Shown piece by piece: positions 46,744-54,153 of a stretch of 64,000 nucleotides of DNA. Below the pieces are notes generated by a model, which was not told where the DNA came from, searched no databases, and saw only the letters and a program-made list of their open reading frames with translations. A program made the translations under genes and the position numbers. Source of the DNA: Terriglobia bacterium (GTDB lineage: Bacteria; Acidobacteriota; Terriglobia; 20CM-2-55-15); NCBI GenBank assembly GCA_965198225.1, contig CBDAOY010000007.1, positions 32,001 to 96,000 on the forward strand, given 5' to 3'. Position 1 is the stretch's first letter. Every line of letters starts with the position of its first letter.

Positions 46744-47691
46744 TCAGGCGGGTACCGGCACGCTGTCGACGATTTCCTGAAGGACGCCTGTCGAGTCCCT
46801 GCGGGCGCGGGTACCTGTGCGGGTCAACACGATTCGATGCCCGAACACCGGTTCGATGAGCTTCTTGACGTCGTCGGGCAGGACGTATTCCCGCTCTGCG
46901 AGCATCGCCACGGCCTGCGCGGCCCGGAACAGCGCTGTCGTGCCGCGCGGGCTGATGCCGAGCTCGACGTCAGGGTGACTACGCGTCCGGTTGACTATTT
47001 CGATCATGTAGTCCATGAGAGGCTCATCGATATGAGCCCGGCGACTCTCGCGCTGCAGATCGAGAACCTCGGCGGGATTCAGCACGGCGCCAAGTGCTCT
47101 GTCGTGGTTTCCATTCGTGTAGCGTTTGAGGATTTCCCGTTCCGCTGCCGCGTCGGGATAGCCGACTTCGATCCTCATGAGGAAACGGTCGAGTTGGGAT
47201 TCCGGAAGCGGGTAGGTTCCATGATGTTCGACCGGATTCTGCGTTGCCAGCACCATGAATGGGCGGGGCAATTCATGGGTGACGTTGTCGATCGTCACCT
47301 GGTTCTCGTTCATCGCCTCCAGCAACGCGCTCTGGGTCTTCGGCGTCGTCCGGTTGATCTCATCGGCCAGCACGATGTTCGCAAAGATCGGCCCCCGCTT
47401 GAATTCGAACTCGTGAACGTTCGGGTTGTAGACCGCCACTCCCAGGACGTCGGAAGGCAGCATGTCGCTCGTGAACTGCAGCCTGTGGAATGTGGATCCC
47501 AGGGCCATCGCCATGGCGTGTCCGAGAGTGGTCTTGCCCACGCCGGGAACATCCTCGATAAGCAGGTGACCTTCTGCGAGAAGAGCGACGATCGCGAGCT
47601 CGATCGTCTCGTCTTTCCCCTTGATAACGTTACCGATAGCCGACCGCAGGTCGACGATTCTCCGGTGGGTGGAATTGGTCGTGGTGCTCAT
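46744..47691 (-). CDS. MoxR-family AAA+ ATPase (second copy)
   Basis: EDVPGVGKTT, RLQFTSDMLPSD, DEINRTTPKTQSALLEAM; start MSTTTN. Confidence 0.95.
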   Translation of the reverse strand: MSTTTNSTHRRIVDLRSAIGNVIKGKDETIELAIVALLAEGHLLIEDVPGVGKTTLGHAMAMALGSTFHRLQFTSDMLPSDVLGVAVYNPNVHEFEFKRGPIFANIVLADEINRTTPKTQSALLEAMNENQVTIDNVTHELPRPFMVLATQNPVEHHGTYPLPESQLDRFLMRIEVGYPDAAAEREILKRYTNGNHDRALGAVLNPAEVLDLQRESRRAHIDEPLMDYMIEIVNRTRSHPDVELGISPRGTTALFRAAQAVAMLAEREYVLPDDVKKLIEPVFGHRIVLTRTGTRARRDSTGVLQEIVDSVPVPA

Positions 47692-48076
47692 GTTTTCCGG
47701 ATAGCCCGATTGTAGCATAGGGACATTTGTCGAACCTTCCCGTGGTTTTGAAGCCGAGCTTGGAGAACGAACCAAGCGTCGCTCGTGGAGCACGAACCGA
47801 CCGTCGATCCGAGAAGACAGTTTGTCTGGGCCGTTTTCGGCCCGACGCGGCCGGTTGCCATATCGGCACCCTTCCGAGCGGACTCACACATAATGCCTTG
47901 CCGCACGATCTCTCTTGATTGTTGGTTTGTCGAACCTTAGCCCCACCTCAGGAGTTGCTTCCGCTCTGGAACCCGCATTGCAGCGTGCAGGTTGACTTCG
48001 CAATTGCGCGAGGTCCGGCGAGTTGGAGGAGAGCCCCTCCCGCTCGACGCCTGAACGGGCTGAAGAGGGTACAGAC

Positions 48077-48946
48077 ATGTCATCGTTCCAGAAGGTCCTG
48101 TTCCCGACCGACTTCTCGAAGGGCGCCGATAACGCCTTTCGACACGCGCTCCGCCTGGCGAACATCCAGAACGGTGAGGTGATCGTCCAGCATGTCGTGA
48201 GCAGCTACTTCGAGAAACATTCCCACTGGGCGACCCTGTTCGACATCCACGAGATGCAGAAGTACATGGACATGTACGTCGAGACCGAGATGGCTGGGGT
48301 CGTACCGGAAGAGATCAAGGGCGATCTCAAGTTCCGCAACGTGATCTCGGAAGGGAAGCCGGCGCAACAGATCGCCGAGTTGGCCGATAAGGAGCGGGTG
48401 GACGTCATCGTCATGGGGCCTACCCGGGGAGTGGTGACCGGCCCGGTGATTCGGGGAACCAACCGCCCGGTACTGGCGGTGCCTCACAACGGTAACGGCG
48501 TGGAGCCACTCCGTAAGATTTCGAAGATCCTCGTCACGACGGATTTTTCAGGACACTCGAAGAAGGTTGTCGACTATGCTTTCGAGCTGAAGAAGCTCTT
48601 CGACTGTGAGATCTACCTGCTGTATGTCGTCGAGCTTACGAATGCGATCAGGTTCGGTATCAAGCAGGGTTACTTCACTGACGCAACGGCGAAGATGAAG
48701 AAGTGGGCCGAAGATCAGCTCGAGAATCTGACGCCACGTCAATATGTCCTGGATGAGACGGTTCACCGTGTGGTCGAGGAGGGTCCGGCCGCCGATCACA
48801 TCAAGGCATTCGCAGACGCCAACGATGTCGACATGGTCGTTCTCGGTGCGCACGGGTACGGACCTGTCCAGAAGCATTTCGTCGGCAAGACGACCGACAA
48901 GGTGCTGCTGGAGCTGGACCGACCGGTGCTGACGGTCAGGATCTAG
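48077..48946 (+). CDS. Tandem universal stress protein
   Basis: Two domains: KVLFPTDFS..VMG..RPVLAV and KILVTTDFS..LGAHG..RPVLTV. Confidence 0.93.
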   Translation: MSSFQKVLFPTDFSKGADNAFRHALRLANIQNGEVIVQHVVSSYFEKHSHWATLFDIHEMQKYMDMYVETEMAGVVPEEIKGDLKFRNVISEGKPAQQIAELADKERVDVIVMGPTRGVVTGPVIRGTNRPVLAVPHNGNGVEPLRKISKILVTTDFSGHSKKVVDYAFELKKLFDCEIYLLYVVELTNAIRFGIKQGYFTDATAKMKKWAEDQLENLTPRQYVLDETVHRVVEEGPAADHIKAFADANDVDMVVLGAHGYGPVQKHFVGKTTDKVLLELDRPVLTVRI

Positions 48947-48947
48947 G

Positions 48948-48975
48948 AAAAAGCCCGCCGCAAGGCGGGCTTTTT
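48948..48975 (+). terminator. Rho-independent terminator (IIC intron target)
   Basis: AAAAAGCCCGCC-GCAA-GGCGGGCTTTTT directly after the USP stop. Confidence 0.92.
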
Positions 48976-49381
48976 GGTTGGTGCGCCAGGCATGGCGCGC
49001 AGCGCCATGAATTGGCGCTGGATAACCGGGGAGCGAAAGCGAACCGGGAAGTGACTAGGAGGTGAGAGTCCTCTGGGGGCCTTGATGACAGGAACCCTTA
49101 GCCGATGTGGCAACTGCGTCCGAGCAATCGGGGGTGGGAAGGAAGCCATAGGCAAAACTCTGGCCCGAGGCACACGAACCGCATAAGAGGCAGGCGTCAG
49201 GTGGGCGAAGAGGCCAACAGATCGGAAGCCCAATGTCATCCGGACCGGGCGTTTGTAGATGCGGCGGGTAGATGGAGTGAAAGTCACGTGCCTTACCCTG
49301 GGAGATCCGTTGTCTTGCTGGGAACAGCTAGAGTCGTCGAGAGGCGGCGCGATGGGGCGGCGGAAGTCAGCCACGGTCATA

Positions 49382-50254
49382 GTGCGTGCCTGGCAGCACG
49401 CGTTTCCGGCGGGTTAAAGTCCCGCTCGGCCCGAGGCCACGGGTCGATATCCAACAAGTGGGGGTAATGCCTCACTGGCCGGAGTGTAGGCAGGATGGCA
49501 GATGCCTCAAGGCAGAGCTGCCACCTACGGAAACTTTGGAGGGCAGGGCGCCCACCGCGAGGTGGGGTCTGAAGGGCATGAGGAGAACCACCGGGTCGTA
49601 ATCGAAGGGAGCATCCCGAGGATGAACCGGTCGGCCAAAGATGGGGAATGGTCGAGCCCGCACTATGGGGGCGAAGGCGCATTTGGTTCCACCCCATCGC
49701 ACCAAGGTGTGTGCGGGCGACACGGTGGAGAAGAGACGCGAGTGACCCAGGGAGGCCTGGTATCGTCCGGGCGGAAGGTAAGGTCGAGATGATGTGGCAC
49801 CCGCAGACGAAAGGGCGGGCAACCGAGAAGACAAACATCGACCTAGAGCCCCGCATGGATATAAGCGTAGAGCGAAATTCCGGCCGACGCGGTGTCAGGA
49901 ATCGGATCGGGGAATGGAGCCAGTACTCAGGAACGAGACGGCAAACATAAGGTCTCGGATCGTTGCTTCGAGCAGCGGCGCTGGCGGTCCAAAAGCCGTT
50001 CGTTGGAGGGGGAAGTCCCCGTACTCAGTCGTCGAATGTGCGAGCGATGCGAGGAAACGCGGAGATATCGTGAACTTGGATAGTTCCCTTAGCGAAAGAC
50101 CCAAACGCGGTACGAACGAAGCCGCCACCTGCCGCCACACAGCGAATTCCGAACGAGGAGCAACTGAGGAAAGCGGCTTGCGGGAAAACCGCACGAGCCG
50201 TTTGATTGAGCGGACGGTGGAAGGGCCGATCGGCCCGACCACTTTCGACTCTAC
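49382..50254 (+). ncRNA. ORF-less group II intron nested in the IIC intron (5' end uncertain by up to 4 nt)
   Basis: GTGCG at 49382; DV AAGCGGCTTGCGGGAAAACCGCACGAGCCGTTT (AGC triad); DVI ending CGACTCTAC; flanks rejoin to a IIC DIII-like sequence. Confidence 0.82.
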
Positions 50255-50314
50255 AGCCCGGCGGAGCCGGGGTGAAGGACCACACATGGAGAAGAGACCG
50301 ACACGGAGCGTTCG

Positions 50315-51712
50315 ATGCGAAACGGAGACGCAGACAAGAGGGCTGAGAAGCCGGAACCGAACCGGAAGGATAGCGGCGGAACCGTGACAGATACGGATGA
50401 GGGGCGTCAAACTCGCACGGCACGTCACGAGCAAGTCGGGATCGAGGAGGGAATGCTACTGGAGAAGGTGCTGGAACGGGAAAACGTTCTGGCCGCATAC
50501 CGACGCGTCAAGGCCAATAGCGGGGCGGCGGGAATCGACGGGATGACCGTTGAGGACCTGATGCCGCACTGTCAGATGCACTGGACGCGAGTCCGTCAAG
50601 AACTGCTCGACGAGACGTACCGCCCCCAACCGGTGAGGAAAGTCGATATTCTGAAACCGGACGGAGGGATACGGACGCTGGGCATTCCGACCGTGATGGA
50701 CCGGATGATTCAACAGGCTCTGCTTCAGGTTCTCCAACCCCTATGGGATCGGACGTTCTCGGAAGATAGCTACGGCTACCGACCGGGACGAAGCGCCCAA
50801 AAGGCGGTGGTGCGTGCCCGGGAACACATTCGAGCCGGACATCGCTGGGTGGTGGACCTGGACATCGAGAAGTTCTTTGATCGCGTCAACCATGACGTGC
50901 TGATGGCACGCGTGGCGCGACGAATCAAAGACAAACGGGTGCTTCGATTGATTCGGCGCTATCTACAGGCCGGACTGATGGAGGGCGGGCTGGTGTCGCC
51001 CCGGGCAGAAGGGACGCCGCAAGGCGGCCCCCTCTCGCCTCTGCTGTCGAACCTGTTGCTGGATGAACTGGATCGGGAGTTGGGGAAACGTGGGCACCGC
51101 TTCGTTCGTTATGCCGACGATGTGAATGTGTACATTCGCTCCGAGGCAGCGGGTCAGCGGGTCATGGCATCGCTGGAATGTTTTCTGGACAGGAGACTCC
51201 GGCTGAAGGTGAACCGGGCCAAAAGCGCCGTGGCGCGGCCGTGGAAGCGAAAGTTCCTCGGGTACAGTTTCACGGCGCATCGCGAGGCCAAACTGAAGGT
51301 TTCGGATTCGTCGTTAAAACGACTGAAAATGAGACTTCGGGAGATCACGCGAGCCGGGCGAGGCCGAAGCCTCGCTCGCACGATCGGAACACTCATTCCC
51401 ATCATTCGGGGTTGGGTGGCTTACTATCGCTTGGCGGAGGTTCGAGGCAGCTTCGAGCGACTGGATCAGTGGTTGCGCCGCCGGCTGCGGTCGATCTTGT
51501 GGCAGCAGTGGAAGCGGAACCGAACACGATTCCGGGAACTCACTCGACGCGGTATTGCGACCGCTCGGGCTCGGACCTCGGTTTCCAACGGGCGCGGGCC
51601 TTGGTGGAATGCGGGCGCCAGCCATATGAATCAGGCTGTCCCCGCCTCTGCCTTCCGTCGCCTGGGTTTGCAATCCTTCTCCGAGGTGCATTCCCGACTT
51701 CAATCTTTATGA
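50315..51712 (+). CDS. ltrA: Group II intron reverse transcriptase/maturase, no endonuclease domain
   Basis: GAAGIDG, RTLGIPTVMDR, DLDIEKFFD, GTPQGGPLSPLL, RYADD, GWVAYY. Confidence 0.96.
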   Translation: MRNGDADKRAEKPEPNRKDSGGTVTDTDEGRQTRTARHEQVGIEEGMLLEKVLERENVLAAYRRVKANSGAAGIDGMTVEDLMPHCQMHWTRVRQELLDETYRPQPVRKVDILKPDGGIRTLGIPTVMDRMIQQALLQVLQPLWDRTFSEDSYGYRPGRSAQKAVVRAREHIRAGHRWVVDLDIEKFFDRVNHDVLMARVARRIKDKRVLRLIRRYLQAGLMEGGLVSPRAEGTPQGGPLSPLLSNLLLDELDRELGKRGHRFVRYADDVNVYIRSEAAGQRVMASLECFLDRRLRLKVNRAKSAVARPWKRKFLGYSFTAHREAKLKVSDSSLKRLKMRLREITRAGRGRSLARTIGTLIPIIRGWVAYYRLAEVRGSFERLDQWLRRRLRSILWQQWKRNRTRFRELTRRGIATARARTSVSNGRGPWWNAGASHMNQAVPASAFRRLGLQSFSEVHSRLQSL

Positions 51713-51777
51713 ACCGCCGTATACGGAACCGTACGTACGGTGGTGTGGGAGGCGGGCGTTAAGCCCGCCTACCCGAT

Positions 51778-51861
51778 TCAGTAGTCAGTTGTCGGGATCG
51801 GGAGCTGGCACACCGCCCATTTCCTCAAACTGGCAACTGGCAACTGATAACTGACAACTGA
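51778..51861. repeat. Heptamer palindrome (GTAGTCA family) at the intron 3' exon
   Basis: TCA GTAGTCA GTTGTCG ... TGGCAAC TGGCAAC TGATAAC TGACAAC TGA. Confidence 0.7.
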
Positions 51862-51912
51862 TTTCTGATATCCTCCGCCTGATAGGGTTCTTGGTGGAGG
51901 TTCTTAGACTTC

Positions 51913-54153
51913 TTGCACGATCTAGCCCGCAGCCTTCCAGGTTATGTGTGCCTGGCACTTCTCTACGCGCTTTTTCTGCCGTGGGACAGCTCTGCCCAAG
52001 AGGCGCTCGACTCCGACATCGCGCCGATTGCCGACTATGAATCCGTCCAGAGCCAGAAGGTCTACGAGATCACCCGCGCCCGGGGTCCGATCCGTCTGGA
52101 CGGTGTGATCGACGAACCTGCCTGGGAAGGGGTCCAGGCCGAAAACGAATACTTTCAACTGGAACCGGTTCGAGGGGTGCCGGCCGACGAGTACACCGAA
52201 TTCCGAATGGTCTACGACGATGAGAACATCTATATCGCCGCGATCAATCTCCAGAACGGCCCTATCATCACCAGCAGCCTGCAACGCGATTTCAACCCGC
52301 CGGCCGATGGCGACGTCATCGCGTTCATGTTCGATACCTTCGACAACGATCGCGACGCATTCTTCTTCCAGACCAACCCGGGAGGGGCCAAGAGAGACCA
52401 GCAGACCTCCGGGGGCGTCCGCAGCACCGAGTGGGACGGCGTGTATGACGTCGCGACTCGGGTCGATGCCGCCGGCTGGTACGCGGAGTTCGCCATACCG
52501 TTCAGGACGCTCCGTTTCGACGAGACGAATCCAGAACAACAGTGGGGTTTCAATGCAATAAGGATCGCCCGGTACACCAACGAATGGATGATGTGGTCGC
52601 CGGGGCCCCGCCCGTTCAATATCTTCCACGTCTTCGTCGGCGGGACGCTGGTCGGGCTCGAGCGACTCCGCCAGGGCCGTAACCTCAAGATCGAGCCGTT
52701 TGTGGTGAGCAATTACACGCCCGATGCCGAAGACGCCTACGACCCGGATGTCGGTGTCGACGTCAAGTACGGCGTGACGTCCAGCCTCACGCTCGACCTG
52801 ACCACCAACACCGACTTCTCACAGGTCGACGCCGACACGCAACAGGTGAACCTGACACGCTTTAGCCTTTTCTTCCCCGAACAACGGGAGTTCTTTCTCG
52901 AAAACCAGGGCCTTTTCGACGTGGGTGCCGGGGAAGGAGGGGGAGGCCCCGGAGGATCGGGAACCATCGGGGGACGGGGTCGCGATGTCATTCCGTTCTT
53001 CAGCCGTCGGATCGGCTTGTCCGGCAGGGGCACGCCGCTTCCGATCGTCGCGGGGGCGAGGCTGACGGGTCGCATGGCCGGGTTCGATGTGGGCGTGATG
53101 AACATGCAGGTCGGTTCGGAAGGGGATACGCCGTCCGACAACTGGTCGGTATTGCGTTTCAAGCGCGACGTCCTTTCCAACTCCGACATCGGAACTTTCC
53201 TCTTCAACCGCGAGCAGGGAGGGGAAACGGGATACTGGAACCGTTCGGGTGGCGCGGACGTGAACCTGAGGTTCTTCCAGCGCCGTCTGACCCTAGCCGG
53301 CTTCGCGATGAAGACCTACACGCCTGGAGACGATGAGAAAAACTTTGCCGGGCAGTTCCAGACCTCCTACCGGGACGACTTTTACGATTTTCGCGGGTCG
53401 TTCATGTCTGTCCAGGAAGACTTCCGGAACGACTTTGGGTTCATCAGGCGCGAAGCGATCCGCAAGACGAATGCGTTTGGCGGCATCCGCCCGAGGCCCG
53501 ACAGCGGGCGTGGGTTGATTCGGGAGATTTTTCCGCAGTTCGAGACCAACTACGTCACGGACCAGCAGGATCGGCTCCTGACGCGCACCCATCGAGCCGG
53601 CGTCAGCATCCAATTCCGTGACGGCGACCGCTTCTCCATGAGCCGCAACATGCGTTTTGAACGGTTGGACGAGGAGTTCGGAATCCGGGGCGGCGTCAAC
53701 ATCCCTGCCGGCGACCACGCCTTCAACGACTGGGATGTTTCTTTCAGCGGATCCGGAGGCCGGAAGCTTTCGGGCGACGCGAGCCTGACGACGGGAGATT
53801 TCTGGACGGGGACCCAGCGACAGACGAGTCTGGGCTTGCGATTCCGGCAGAGCATTCATTTCACGACCGAGGTCGACTGGTCCCGGAACAAGATCGAGTT
53901 GGATGAAGGGTCGTTCACGACCGACCTGATCGGGCTGCGGTTAAACTTTGCGTTTTCGCCGCGGATGTTCTTCGAGAACTTCATCCAGTACAACACCGAC
54001 GCCAACACCGTTTCGTCGAACATCCGGTTCCGGTTCCTCCACCACCCGTTGAGCGACTTCTTCATCGTTTACAACGAGCGGCGCGGAGTCAGCGGCAACA
54101 ATGCACTCGAACGAGCCTTGATCATCAAGCTCACGAACCTGTTCAGCTTCTAG
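51913..54153 (+). CDS. CBM9-like/DUF5916 outer-membrane protein
   Basis: IRLDGVIDEPAW, WYAEFAIPF, DLTTNTDFSQV, FFPEQREFFLE, FFSRRIGL; terminal Phe. Confidence 0.88.
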   Translation: MHDLARSLPGYVCLALLYALFLPWDSSAQEALDSDIAPIADYESVQSQKVYEITRARGPIRLDGVIDEPAWEGVQAENEYFQLEPVRGVPADEYTEFRMVYDDENIYIAAINLQNGPIITSSLQRDFNPPADGDVIAFMFDTFDNDRDAFFFQTNPGGAKRDQQTSGGVRSTEWDGVYDVATRVDAAGWYAEFAIPFRTLRFDETNPEQQWGFNAIRIARYTNEWMMWSPGPRPFNIFHVFVGGTLVGLERLRQGRNLKIEPFVVSNYTPDAEDAYDPDVGVDVKYGVTSSLTLDLTTNTDFSQVDADTQQVNLTRFSLFFPEQREFFLENQGLFDVGAGEGGGGPGGSGTIGGRGRDVIPFFSRRIGLSGRGTPLPIVAGARLTGRMAGFDVGVMNMQVGSEGDTPSDNWSVLRFKRDVLSNSDIGTFLFNREQGGETGYWNRSGGADVNLRFFQRRLTLAGFAMKTYTPGDDEKNFAGQFQTSYRDDFYDFRGSFMSVQEDFRNDFGFIRREAIRKTNAFGGIRPRPDSGRGLIREIFPQFETNYVTDQQDRLLTRTHRAGVSIQFRDGDRFSMSRNMRFERLDEEFGIRGGVNIPAGDHAFNDWDVSFSGSGGRKLSGDASLTTGDFWTGTQRQTSLGLRFRQSIHFTTEVDWSRNKIELDEGSFTTDLIGLRLNFAFSPRMFFENFIQYNTDANTVSSNIRFRFLHHPLSDFFIVYNERRGVSGNNALERALIIKLTNLFSF

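Follow-up and report, generated by a model that had tools for sequence, protein, structure and literature searches.

We analysed a window of 64,000 nucleotides (nt) of DNA from a Terriglobia bacterium (GenBank assembly GCA_965198225.1, contig CBDAOY010000007.1, positions 32,001 to 96,000 of the forward strand). The genome of the window is called G000 below, and positions are those of the window unless a contig of G000 is named. Between a gene for a tandem Usp protein (48023-48946, + strand) and a gene for a DUF5916/CBM9-like protein (51913-54153, + strand), the window carries two group II introns, one inside the other (48981..51777, + strand, delimited by Rfam matches and by the flanks of eight genomic copies). 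The outer intron is of class IIC. The inner one is an 871-nt group II intron lacking an open reading frame (ORF), which runs from GCGUG to CUCUAC (49384..50254, + strand, delimited by seven empty copies and by the joint seen in contigs). A further neighbour encodes a MoxR-type AAA ATPase (46744-47793, - strand), and none of these three genes is interrupted. The element is thus intergenic, and expression of the host genes should be unaffected. We consider it likely that this is a true group II twintron, in which one mobile intron retrohomed into another.

The outer intron begins with GTGCG at 48981, directly after the terminator-like (Rho-independent) hairpin of the Usp gene (48948..48975, + strand, seen in the sequence and in terminator-like Rfam sub-matches), a T-run and GTTG. 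From the sequence, GTTG (48977-48980, + strand) is the likely short intron-binding site 1 (IBS1) of the outer intron. Rfam alignment assigns domain I, domain II and the 5' strand of domain III up to AUAGU to the 5' segment (48981..49383, + strand), and the D1D4-3 model matches 49118-49292 within domain I at the gathering threshold (114.9 bits). The rest of domain III follows the insert (50255..50281, + strand) and consists of A, the stem GCCCGG...CCGGGGU, GAAG and GACC, as read from the RF01998 alignment of an intact sibling copy (L031) and from the fold of the ligated flanks. The ORF of the outer reverse transcriptase (RT)/maturase is uninterrupted and lies 3' of the insertion (50315..51712, + strand, 465 aa). 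Domains V and VI (51712..51777, + strand, RF00029, 45.3 bits) contain a CGC triad and end in ...CCCGAT. The ORF starts 1,334 nt after 48981, in agreement with the long 5' region of about 1.33 kb noted in an initial annotation of this DNA. Without the insert, the intron is 1,926 nt long, and subtraction of the 1,398-nt ORF leaves a ribozyme part of about 530 nt.

A CGC triad in domain V is a marker of class IIC. The outer domain V reads CCGCCGUAU where the Rfam consensus has GAGCCGUAU, i.e., CGC in place of AGC. The outer protein has the domains RVT_1 and GIIM only, without an endonuclease domain, and matches TIGR04416 with 421.7 bits. Its closest relative of solved structure is the GsI-IIC RT (463 bits, E 8.5e-138), followed by other IIC RTs. 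The genome contains eight outer copies in total, from whose flanks the outer boundaries were taken, and all eight are preceded by a GC-rich hairpin, a T-run and TTG. Insertion of IIC introns at terminators and a CGC triad "for some introns" are described in a review (PMC4424553). Every IIC feature tested was found in the outer element, and it is a typical, recently active class IIC intron. One sibling copy (L031, C7:488453) lies just 3' of the 3' part of a tRNA gene and a hairpin; the tRNA match (RF00005, 33.9 bits) covers positions 1-51 of L031, that is, G000:C7:488353-488403.

The insert interrupts an intron that is found uninterrupted elsewhere in the same genome. We searched G000 with the window intron from which 49382-50254 had been cut out in silico, and found seven other outer copies, of which five are colinear at 95.3-99.9% identity and two are internally rearranged. 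All seven lack the insert and have contiguous flanks, reading CATAGTAGCCC rather than CATAAGCCC; across the site they read GGTCATAGTAGCCCGG, i.e., ...GGTCATA-GT-AGCCCGG..., without interruption. The extra 870 nt to which the initial annotation had drawn attention are therefore missing from 7/7 homologous copies. Its proposal that an ORF-less group II intron lies within the ribozyme core of a IIC intron is borne out by these empty siblings and by a second pair of domains V and VI, described below. When the 1,924 aligned nt outside the insert are compared, two of the empty copies (C8:882283 and C9:611822) show no substitution against the window's outer intron. Given this identity to two siblings, the insertion appears to be very recent; gene conversion among outer copies would be an alternative cause of their uniformity.

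The exact boundaries were obtained from the empty copies and from contigs aligned on 48800-51900, which come from three metatranscriptome runs and from a run X1 whose kind is not on record. In all four runs, aligned contigs join 49383 to 50255. They skip 871 nt with the ends GC..AC, and the joint has zero positional ambiguity. We therefore read the clean insertion as 871 nt (49384-50254), not 873 nt, and assign the GT at 49382 to the host intron. The initial annotation had noted a second GTGCG at 49382, an AGC-triad domain V at 50171-50203 and a CTCTAC end at 50254, and all of these are present as placed. Its start of the inner intron needs correction: GTGCG does stand at 49382, but the true 5' end is 49384, since the GT is the host's according to the empty copies. 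The apparent GUGCG thus consists of the host GU and the GCG of the intron. One intron lies wholly within another whose uninterrupted homologues are known, as is expected of a twintron.

The insertion site was located by alignment with Rfam models. The intact sibling L031 matches RF01998 (group-II-D1D4-1) with 41.6 bits, above the gathering score of 35, whereas the interrupted window copy scores just 19 bits. The consensus of RF01998, GcC-AUAGUA-[stem]-GAAG-GgC, runs from a basal stem through a conserved internal loop and an inner stem to the return strand. On this alignment, the insertion falls between U and A of AUAGU|A, the conserved internal loop at the base of outer domain III. This fits the earlier observation that removal of the insert rejoins a sequence resembling domain III of a IIC intron. 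J2/3 was also considered as the insertion site and was ruled out, as the alignment of the intact sibling shows the internal loop of domain III. When the flanks were ligated in silico with the host GT kept, five of six host types folded into the base stem, the AUAGUA loop, a stem, GAAG and the base stem. The sequence CATAGT (49378..49383, + strand) is part of this loop and is at the same time the IBS1 (5' exon end) of the inner intron.

The inner intron carries the hallmarks of a group II ribozyme. Its exon-binding site 1 (EBS1), ACTATG (49662..49667, + strand), lies in the terminal loop of a domain I hairpin, GCC[C/U]-GCACUAUGG-[G/A]GGC. An inner EBS1 matching the sequence upstream of the insert had been expected in the initial annotation, and ACUAUG is complementary to CAUAGU (49378-49383) at 6/6 positions by Watson-Crick pairing. 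The stem of the EBS1 hairpin shows one compensatory change, in the relative L028. According to the Rfam alignment, domain V (50171..50203, + strand, 33 nt) combines an AGC triad with a CG bulge and a GAAAA loop. Its strands read AAGCGGCU...AGCCGUUU, and two of its 13 predicted pairs have compensatory changes among seven sequences. In domain VI (50208..50251, + strand), an A bulges out at 50248, at a distance of 7 nt from the 3' end (50254), and there are 16 pairs, one of which shows a compensatory change of UA to AU in 3/7 sequences. Taken together, 3 of the 29 predicted pairs of the two domains have changes on both sides (seven sequences from four genomes). In a permissive scan of 48900-51900, RF00029 (Intron_gpII) matches 50169-50254 with 36.9 bits (E 6e-5), and a weak D1D4-3 match is found at 49551-49657 (24.7 bits).

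The inner intron belongs to a family that is abundant in G000. We found 20 5' ends of this family, of which 18 follow (A/G)TA-GT, one follows GTA-AT (C5:503866) and one follows a flank unlike an intron. Besides nested, partial and ORF-bearing copies, the insert has 11 further near-full-length genomic copies. Nineteen of the 20 5' ends lie within domain-III-like flanks of group II introns, those of the family itself included. The flanks are of at least nine types; by upstream Rfam matches, the host introns belong to the D1D4-3, D1D4-6 and D1D4-2 model types, and self-nesting occurs in addition. The 5' and 3' host flank types are combined in a mixed fashion among the copies, which is consistent with recombination between nested copies. 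The 3' exons of the family all start with A. Of 10 copies with the EBS1 ACUAUG, 9 have C or U at target position -6, and of 7 copies with ACUAUU, 6 have A or G there. The flanks of the family in G000 contain no IBS2-like conserved block upstream of the targets. A GRAGUCAG-like motif stands 13-20 nt upstream of the targets in many hosts and is part of the host intron.

The family also has the target motif itself. At their own equivalent domain III site, 11 of 12 aligned copies read AATAGTACTC (GGGGAATAGTACTC), and the self-nested copies read AATA-GT-[GCG...CTAC]-ACTC (GGGGAATA-GT-[GCG...CTCTAC]-ACTC). Self-nested copies at AATAGT|A are found at G000:C4:150748-152235, C5:62160-64014, C6:840161-841975 and C8:158735-160383. 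At C5:3834-4942, an inner copy starts at GCGTGCC after the unrelated flank ...GCTGATGGC, which ends in GC, and the 3' part of a self copy comes next. Either an ectopic insertion or a hybrid derived from a nested pair could account for this locus, which lies close to the start of a contig and shows many homopolymer differences of 1 nt. G000 is unusually rich in group II introns, with at least 32 RF00029 matches at E <= 0.01 when 150 of 435 candidates were scored, and several of its introns start directly after domain VI of another intron.

The same genome encodes a protein of the inner family. An intact RT/maturase ORF is present in two copies (C6:343788-345943 and C5:501714-503867), and a third copy is frameshifted. 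The ORF lies in domain IV and is an open frame of 479 codons, or 475 aa from the first TTG start. ORF-less copies break at family positions 764/767, where the ORF-bearing siblings hold the RT/maturase. The cognate intron-encoded protein and the other copies whose existence the initial annotation had suggested checking are thus both found in this genome. The protein consists of RVT_1 and GIIM without an endonuclease domain and matches TIGR04416 with 390 bits; it is 39% identical to the outer protein. Among solved structures, IIC RTs score highest (222 and 217 bits), followed by TeI4h (157 bits) and LtrA (136 bits).

The class of the inner intron is less plain than that of the outer one. Like class IIC introns (GsI-IIC and E. 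rectale RT/maturases; PDB 6ar1, 7uim), which hold its nearest proteins, its family has a protein without an endonuclease domain and targets without a conserved IBS2. Unlike them, it has an AGC triad, a 6-bp rather than a 3-4-bp EBS1-IBS1 pairing with a correspondingly 6-nt IBS1, and a much larger domain I, and it is not placed behind terminators; its targets are domain III loops or ordinary genes. We regard the family as related to IIC and do not assign it to IIC, given that the nearest proteins are distant (222 bits). The initial annotation had placed the inner intron in a different class from the outer one. The triads (AGC and CGC), the EBS1 length, the size of domain I and the 39% protein identity agree with this, but the closeness of the protein to IIC RTs does not.

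Relatives of the inner family are present in other genomes. We found 10 related loci in four public records of metagenome-assembled genomes (MAGs), which are from Terriglobia, Nitrospinota and two Desulfobacterales-like organisms. Their readable 5' junctions follow (A/G)TA-GT, with the exceptions of ATC-GT at L054 and ATA-GC at L055, and their 3' exons all begin with A. Host-intron motifs lie upstream of L025 and L026 (D1D4-6), of L028 and L034 (D1D4-3) and of L036, and a domain V lies downstream of the relative at L024. In the Terriglobia MAG (G002), at least two copies reside in ordinary chromosomal sequence, as revealed by homology to uninterrupted genes of G000. These copies, L055 and L023, correspond to G000:C9:~541204 and C9:~973731, and the protein of the family is 89-93% identical in this MAG. 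One of the two insertions is within a 392-codon ORF and the other is a few codons into a gene. The idea that this lineage resides obligatorily in introns was therefore rejected. Rfam scans of the G002 loci gave no host-intron motifs; RF00029 gave two weak matches only in G002. As these scans also missed the family's own domain V, they are uninformative on hosts. Among 150 other genomes sampled from the same phylum, with about five candidates scored each, the inner 5' end was not found at E <= 1e-8.

Contigs from RNA libraries of another study also contain the nested form. These contigs bear sponge metagenome labels, and the study is not that of the best DNA source. Contigs from three libraries bridge the 5' junction (49354-49408), and contigs of X8 and X9, over the stretch 49889-50284, extend to or past the 3' junction (to 50255 and 50284). 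The nested form therefore exists in other samples, either as RNA or as carried-over DNA.

From these observations, a course of events can be proposed. The inner intron would arrive by reverse splicing guided by pairing of EBS1 with CAUAGU and by the A of the 3' exon, and would thereby be placed between U and A of AUAGU|A. The host GU beside GCGUG mimics a canonical GUGCG start. In the RNA, the inner intron would split outer domain III, whose loop bases would be engaged in the EBS1-IBS1 helix. Core formation by the outer ribozyme should therefore have to wait for release of the inner intron. Because domain III is split and the IBS1 is the domain III loop itself, we infer that the inner intron splices first. 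In twintrons, the inner intron often has to splice first, according to a review (PMC4424553). Excision at 49383|49384 and 50254|50255 would regenerate the sequence of the uninterrupted copies exactly. The ORF-less inner intron would either be served in trans by the RT/maturase of the two family copies with an intact ORF or self-splice. On this proposal the window copy would still be able to splice.

Several observations weigh against a functional twintron that arose by retrohoming. The inner domains V and VI score 36.9 bits, below the gathering score of 40, and a scan of the whole window at gathering scores shows one domain V only; of the two Rfam matches that the initial annotation had predicted, both thus appear in the permissive scan (45.3 and 36.9 bits) but only one at the gathering score. 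The actual 5' end, GCGUG, deviates from GUGYG at position 2. The rows on which the covariation of EBS1 and target is based share flanks and are not independent, and 2 of the 17 do not fit (15/17 fit). No other copy of the family is as short as the window inner copy, which is separated from its nearest siblings by 11-12 substitutions and 10-14 indel events and has a 32-nt deletion in domain I; the assembly contains no identical donor of it. The genome has 142 free CATAGTA sites and 418 free [ACG]ATAGTA sites. As so many matching sites remain free, the seven-base pairing cannot explain the choice of target. The joined form with the 871-nt skip is also expected from the seven empty DNA copies and is also present in X1; the skip is therefore not evidence of splicing. 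No contig in the RNA runs covers the unique flanks of the twintron.

Some of these points fit another account, in which the twintron arose in the same way but the window inner copy no longer splices, so that the outer ribozyme would be permanently disabled while its RT ORF remained translatable. We regard this as possible but rather doubtful. The window copy has lesions that none of its 11 siblings shares: besides the 32-nt deletion, these are the loss of a small hairpin from the region of domain II, an insertion of 6 nt within the conserved AUAGUA loop of its own domain III, and one of 3-4 nt in domain IV. It also lacks an ORF and has C in place of U at intron position 2. The 6-nt insertion is GGAGCC (49916..49921, + strand), giving AAU[GGAGCC]AGUA. 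It was found only in the window copy when 12 copies and relatives were aligned, and contigs from other copies omit 6 nt at 49916. It abolishes the family's self-homing site in the window copy and may or may not impair the ribozyme. Indels at 49494-49520, 49851-49868 and 49916-49921 are seen in no other copy of the assembly, though the surrounding outer intron is identical to its siblings.

Other features speak for competence of the window copy. The 32-nt deletion falls within a segment that is wholly missing from L024 and L025, and this segment is therefore dispensable. Domain V, domain VI and EBS1 do not deviate from the family consensus, and EBS1 pairs with IBS1 at every position. The C at position 2 is common to all G000 and G002 copies, the ORF-bearing ones included. 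Since the insertion appears recent, the donor RNA probably already had the features of the window copy, and an RNA with most of these changes would still have reverse-spliced, unless gene conversion keeps the outer copies uniform. This argues for an inner intron that is still competent.

We also considered that the inner intron did not enter DNA but was reverse-spliced into outer RNA, and that the composite was then copied into the genome when the outer intron retrotransposed. Only insertions into RNAs of retroelements would be heritable, which would explain why the family resides in introns. The base pairing does not account for 19/20 junctions in introns while the sites counted above are free elsewhere. 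In addition, all six copies of one host type are occupied and have 100% identical 150-nt upstream flanks, which suggests that composites can multiply as units. However, an outer lariat with a split domain III should not reverse-splice, and seven outer copies remain empty. The G002 copies in ordinary genes are as predicted by DNA retrohoming. Selection against genic insertions, or segmental duplication, would explain the bias toward introns equally well. We consider invasion at the RNA level quite improbable, and retrohoming into DNA is preferred.

A third account keeps the original start, with an 873-nt inner intron from GUGCG at 49382, whose excision would leave domain III two bases short (CAUA|AGCCC). 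This GUGCG fits the group II 5' consensus at 5/5 positions, whereas GCGUG at 49384 agrees with GUGYG at 4/5, and GT precedes GCGTGCC in 18/20 5' ends of the family in G000. However, GT is kept in all empty sites of the outer intron (7/7) and in 11/12 self sites, and a systematic 2-nt deletion of the target would be needed at each independent insertion. There are also copies with another dinucleotide at the place of GT, namely GC at L055 and C5:3834 and AT at C5:503866. L055 in G002 is preceded by ...CATAGC (TTCATAGC), and the homologous uninterrupted site in G000 reads ...CATCGC|GG (TTCATCGC|GG). Because the GC of L055 recurs in this empty site, the two bases before GCGTGCC are exon bases. The complementarity of EBS1 runs through the GU, and the 49384 register alone gives a spacing to the conserved GCCNGGCA that agrees with the outer IIC intron. 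Of the first 12 nt, 9 match between the inner and outer introns in this register and 5 in the 49382 register. Furthermore, the relatives L024, L025 and L028 read GT|GTGTGCC, which gives a canonical GUGUG in the 49384 register. An 873-nt intron is very unlikely on this evidence. That the nesting is an artefact of repeat joining in the assembly is extremely improbable, for although both elements are multi-copy repeats, independent contigs bridge the 5' junction in three RNA libraries and reach or cross the 3' junction in two (X8 and X9), and the same junction structure occurs at the other 17 (A/G)TA-GT 5' junctions of the genome.

Returning to a twintron made by retrohoming, we put forward a broader reading of the family, which we hold tentatively and would not call probable. 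The inner intron may represent a lineage of "introns of introns", whose EBS1 loop has become matched to AUAGU|A of domain III, a motif present in the group II host types analysed here, so that all introns with this motif in a cell would be homing sites, and whose GCGUG end is masked by the host GU. As part of this reading, the lineage would have invaded at least three structural host types and itself in G000, at 19 of the 20 junctions. No copy is left empty in the host type with six copies, nor in several types with just one or two. Catalysis by the host would depend on prior excision of the parasite, which would amount to hyperparasitic control. A host family that is 86-88% related to an invaded host reads CATA-CT-ACTCGG in the domain III loop where the invaded host has CATA-GT-AC, and its three copies (G000:C6:296452-296601, C8:79021-79170 and C5:569945-570094) are all uninvaded. 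These CATACTA hosts may have target-site immunity or may simply represent the ancestral state.

Bacterial twintrons are rare, and the well-studied ones are located in domain IV or in the host ORF, sparing the host ribozyme. In Thermosynechococcus elongatus, ORF-less TeI3 (F3) introns are described inside TeI4 (F1) introns (Mohr, Ghanem and Lambowitz 2010, PMC2882425). As in that system, where they are mobilised in trans, the inner introns in G000 are ORF-less derivatives of an ORF-bearing family. The T. elongatus insertions described there fall in domain IV, between the first and the second ATG of the host ORF, and leave the core of the host intact. In contrast, the site here is an internal loop of domain III in the catalytic core, and the hosts comprise three D1D4 model types and the family itself. 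The inner and outer introns of T. elongatus are close relatives, whereas the two proteins here are, as noted, far more diverged.

Nested introns are also described from Methanosarcina acetivorans, where repeated site-specific homing into group II introns has produced arrays with a "perpetual homing site", and where copies are lost by homologous recombination (review PMC4424553). The mixed 5' and 3' flank combinations in G000 would fit the same process of recombination. Unlike in M. acetivorans, the target here is an RNA-structural motif of domain III; the introns of M. acetivorans reportedly home into ORFs of related introns. The Tery_4732 twintron of Trichodesmium erythraeum has an inner intron in host domain I and splices sequentially in vivo (Pfreundt and Hess 2015, PMC4649490). 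It resembles the element described here in being a bacterial twintron whose inner intron interrupts the host ribozyme itself. As described in that study, both of its introns have ORFs and it lies in a protein-coding gene at a single conserved locus, whereas the present twintron is intergenic, and its ORF-less inner intron is one of many copies. Twintrons formed when one mobile intron homes into a conserved site of another are thus already known. What appears to be new is a domain III loop target common to several intron types, self-nesting at the same motif and a masked non-canonical 5' end; our literature searches, with supplements and subscription papers outside their scope, found no description of homing into a domain III loop.

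The finding has a practical side for annotation. An adjacent host GU can fake a canonical 5' end, which moves the boundary by two bases and leads to a wrong prediction of the spliced product. With the Trichodesmium twintron as a precedent for sequential splicing (PMC4649490), the splicing order predicted here is directly testable. The family would offer a natural system for the variation that is permitted in the GUGYG 5' end, and for the relation between short RNA-DNA pairings and high target specificity. It would also be a natural system for studying how one retroelement can parasitise, and perhaps throttle, others.

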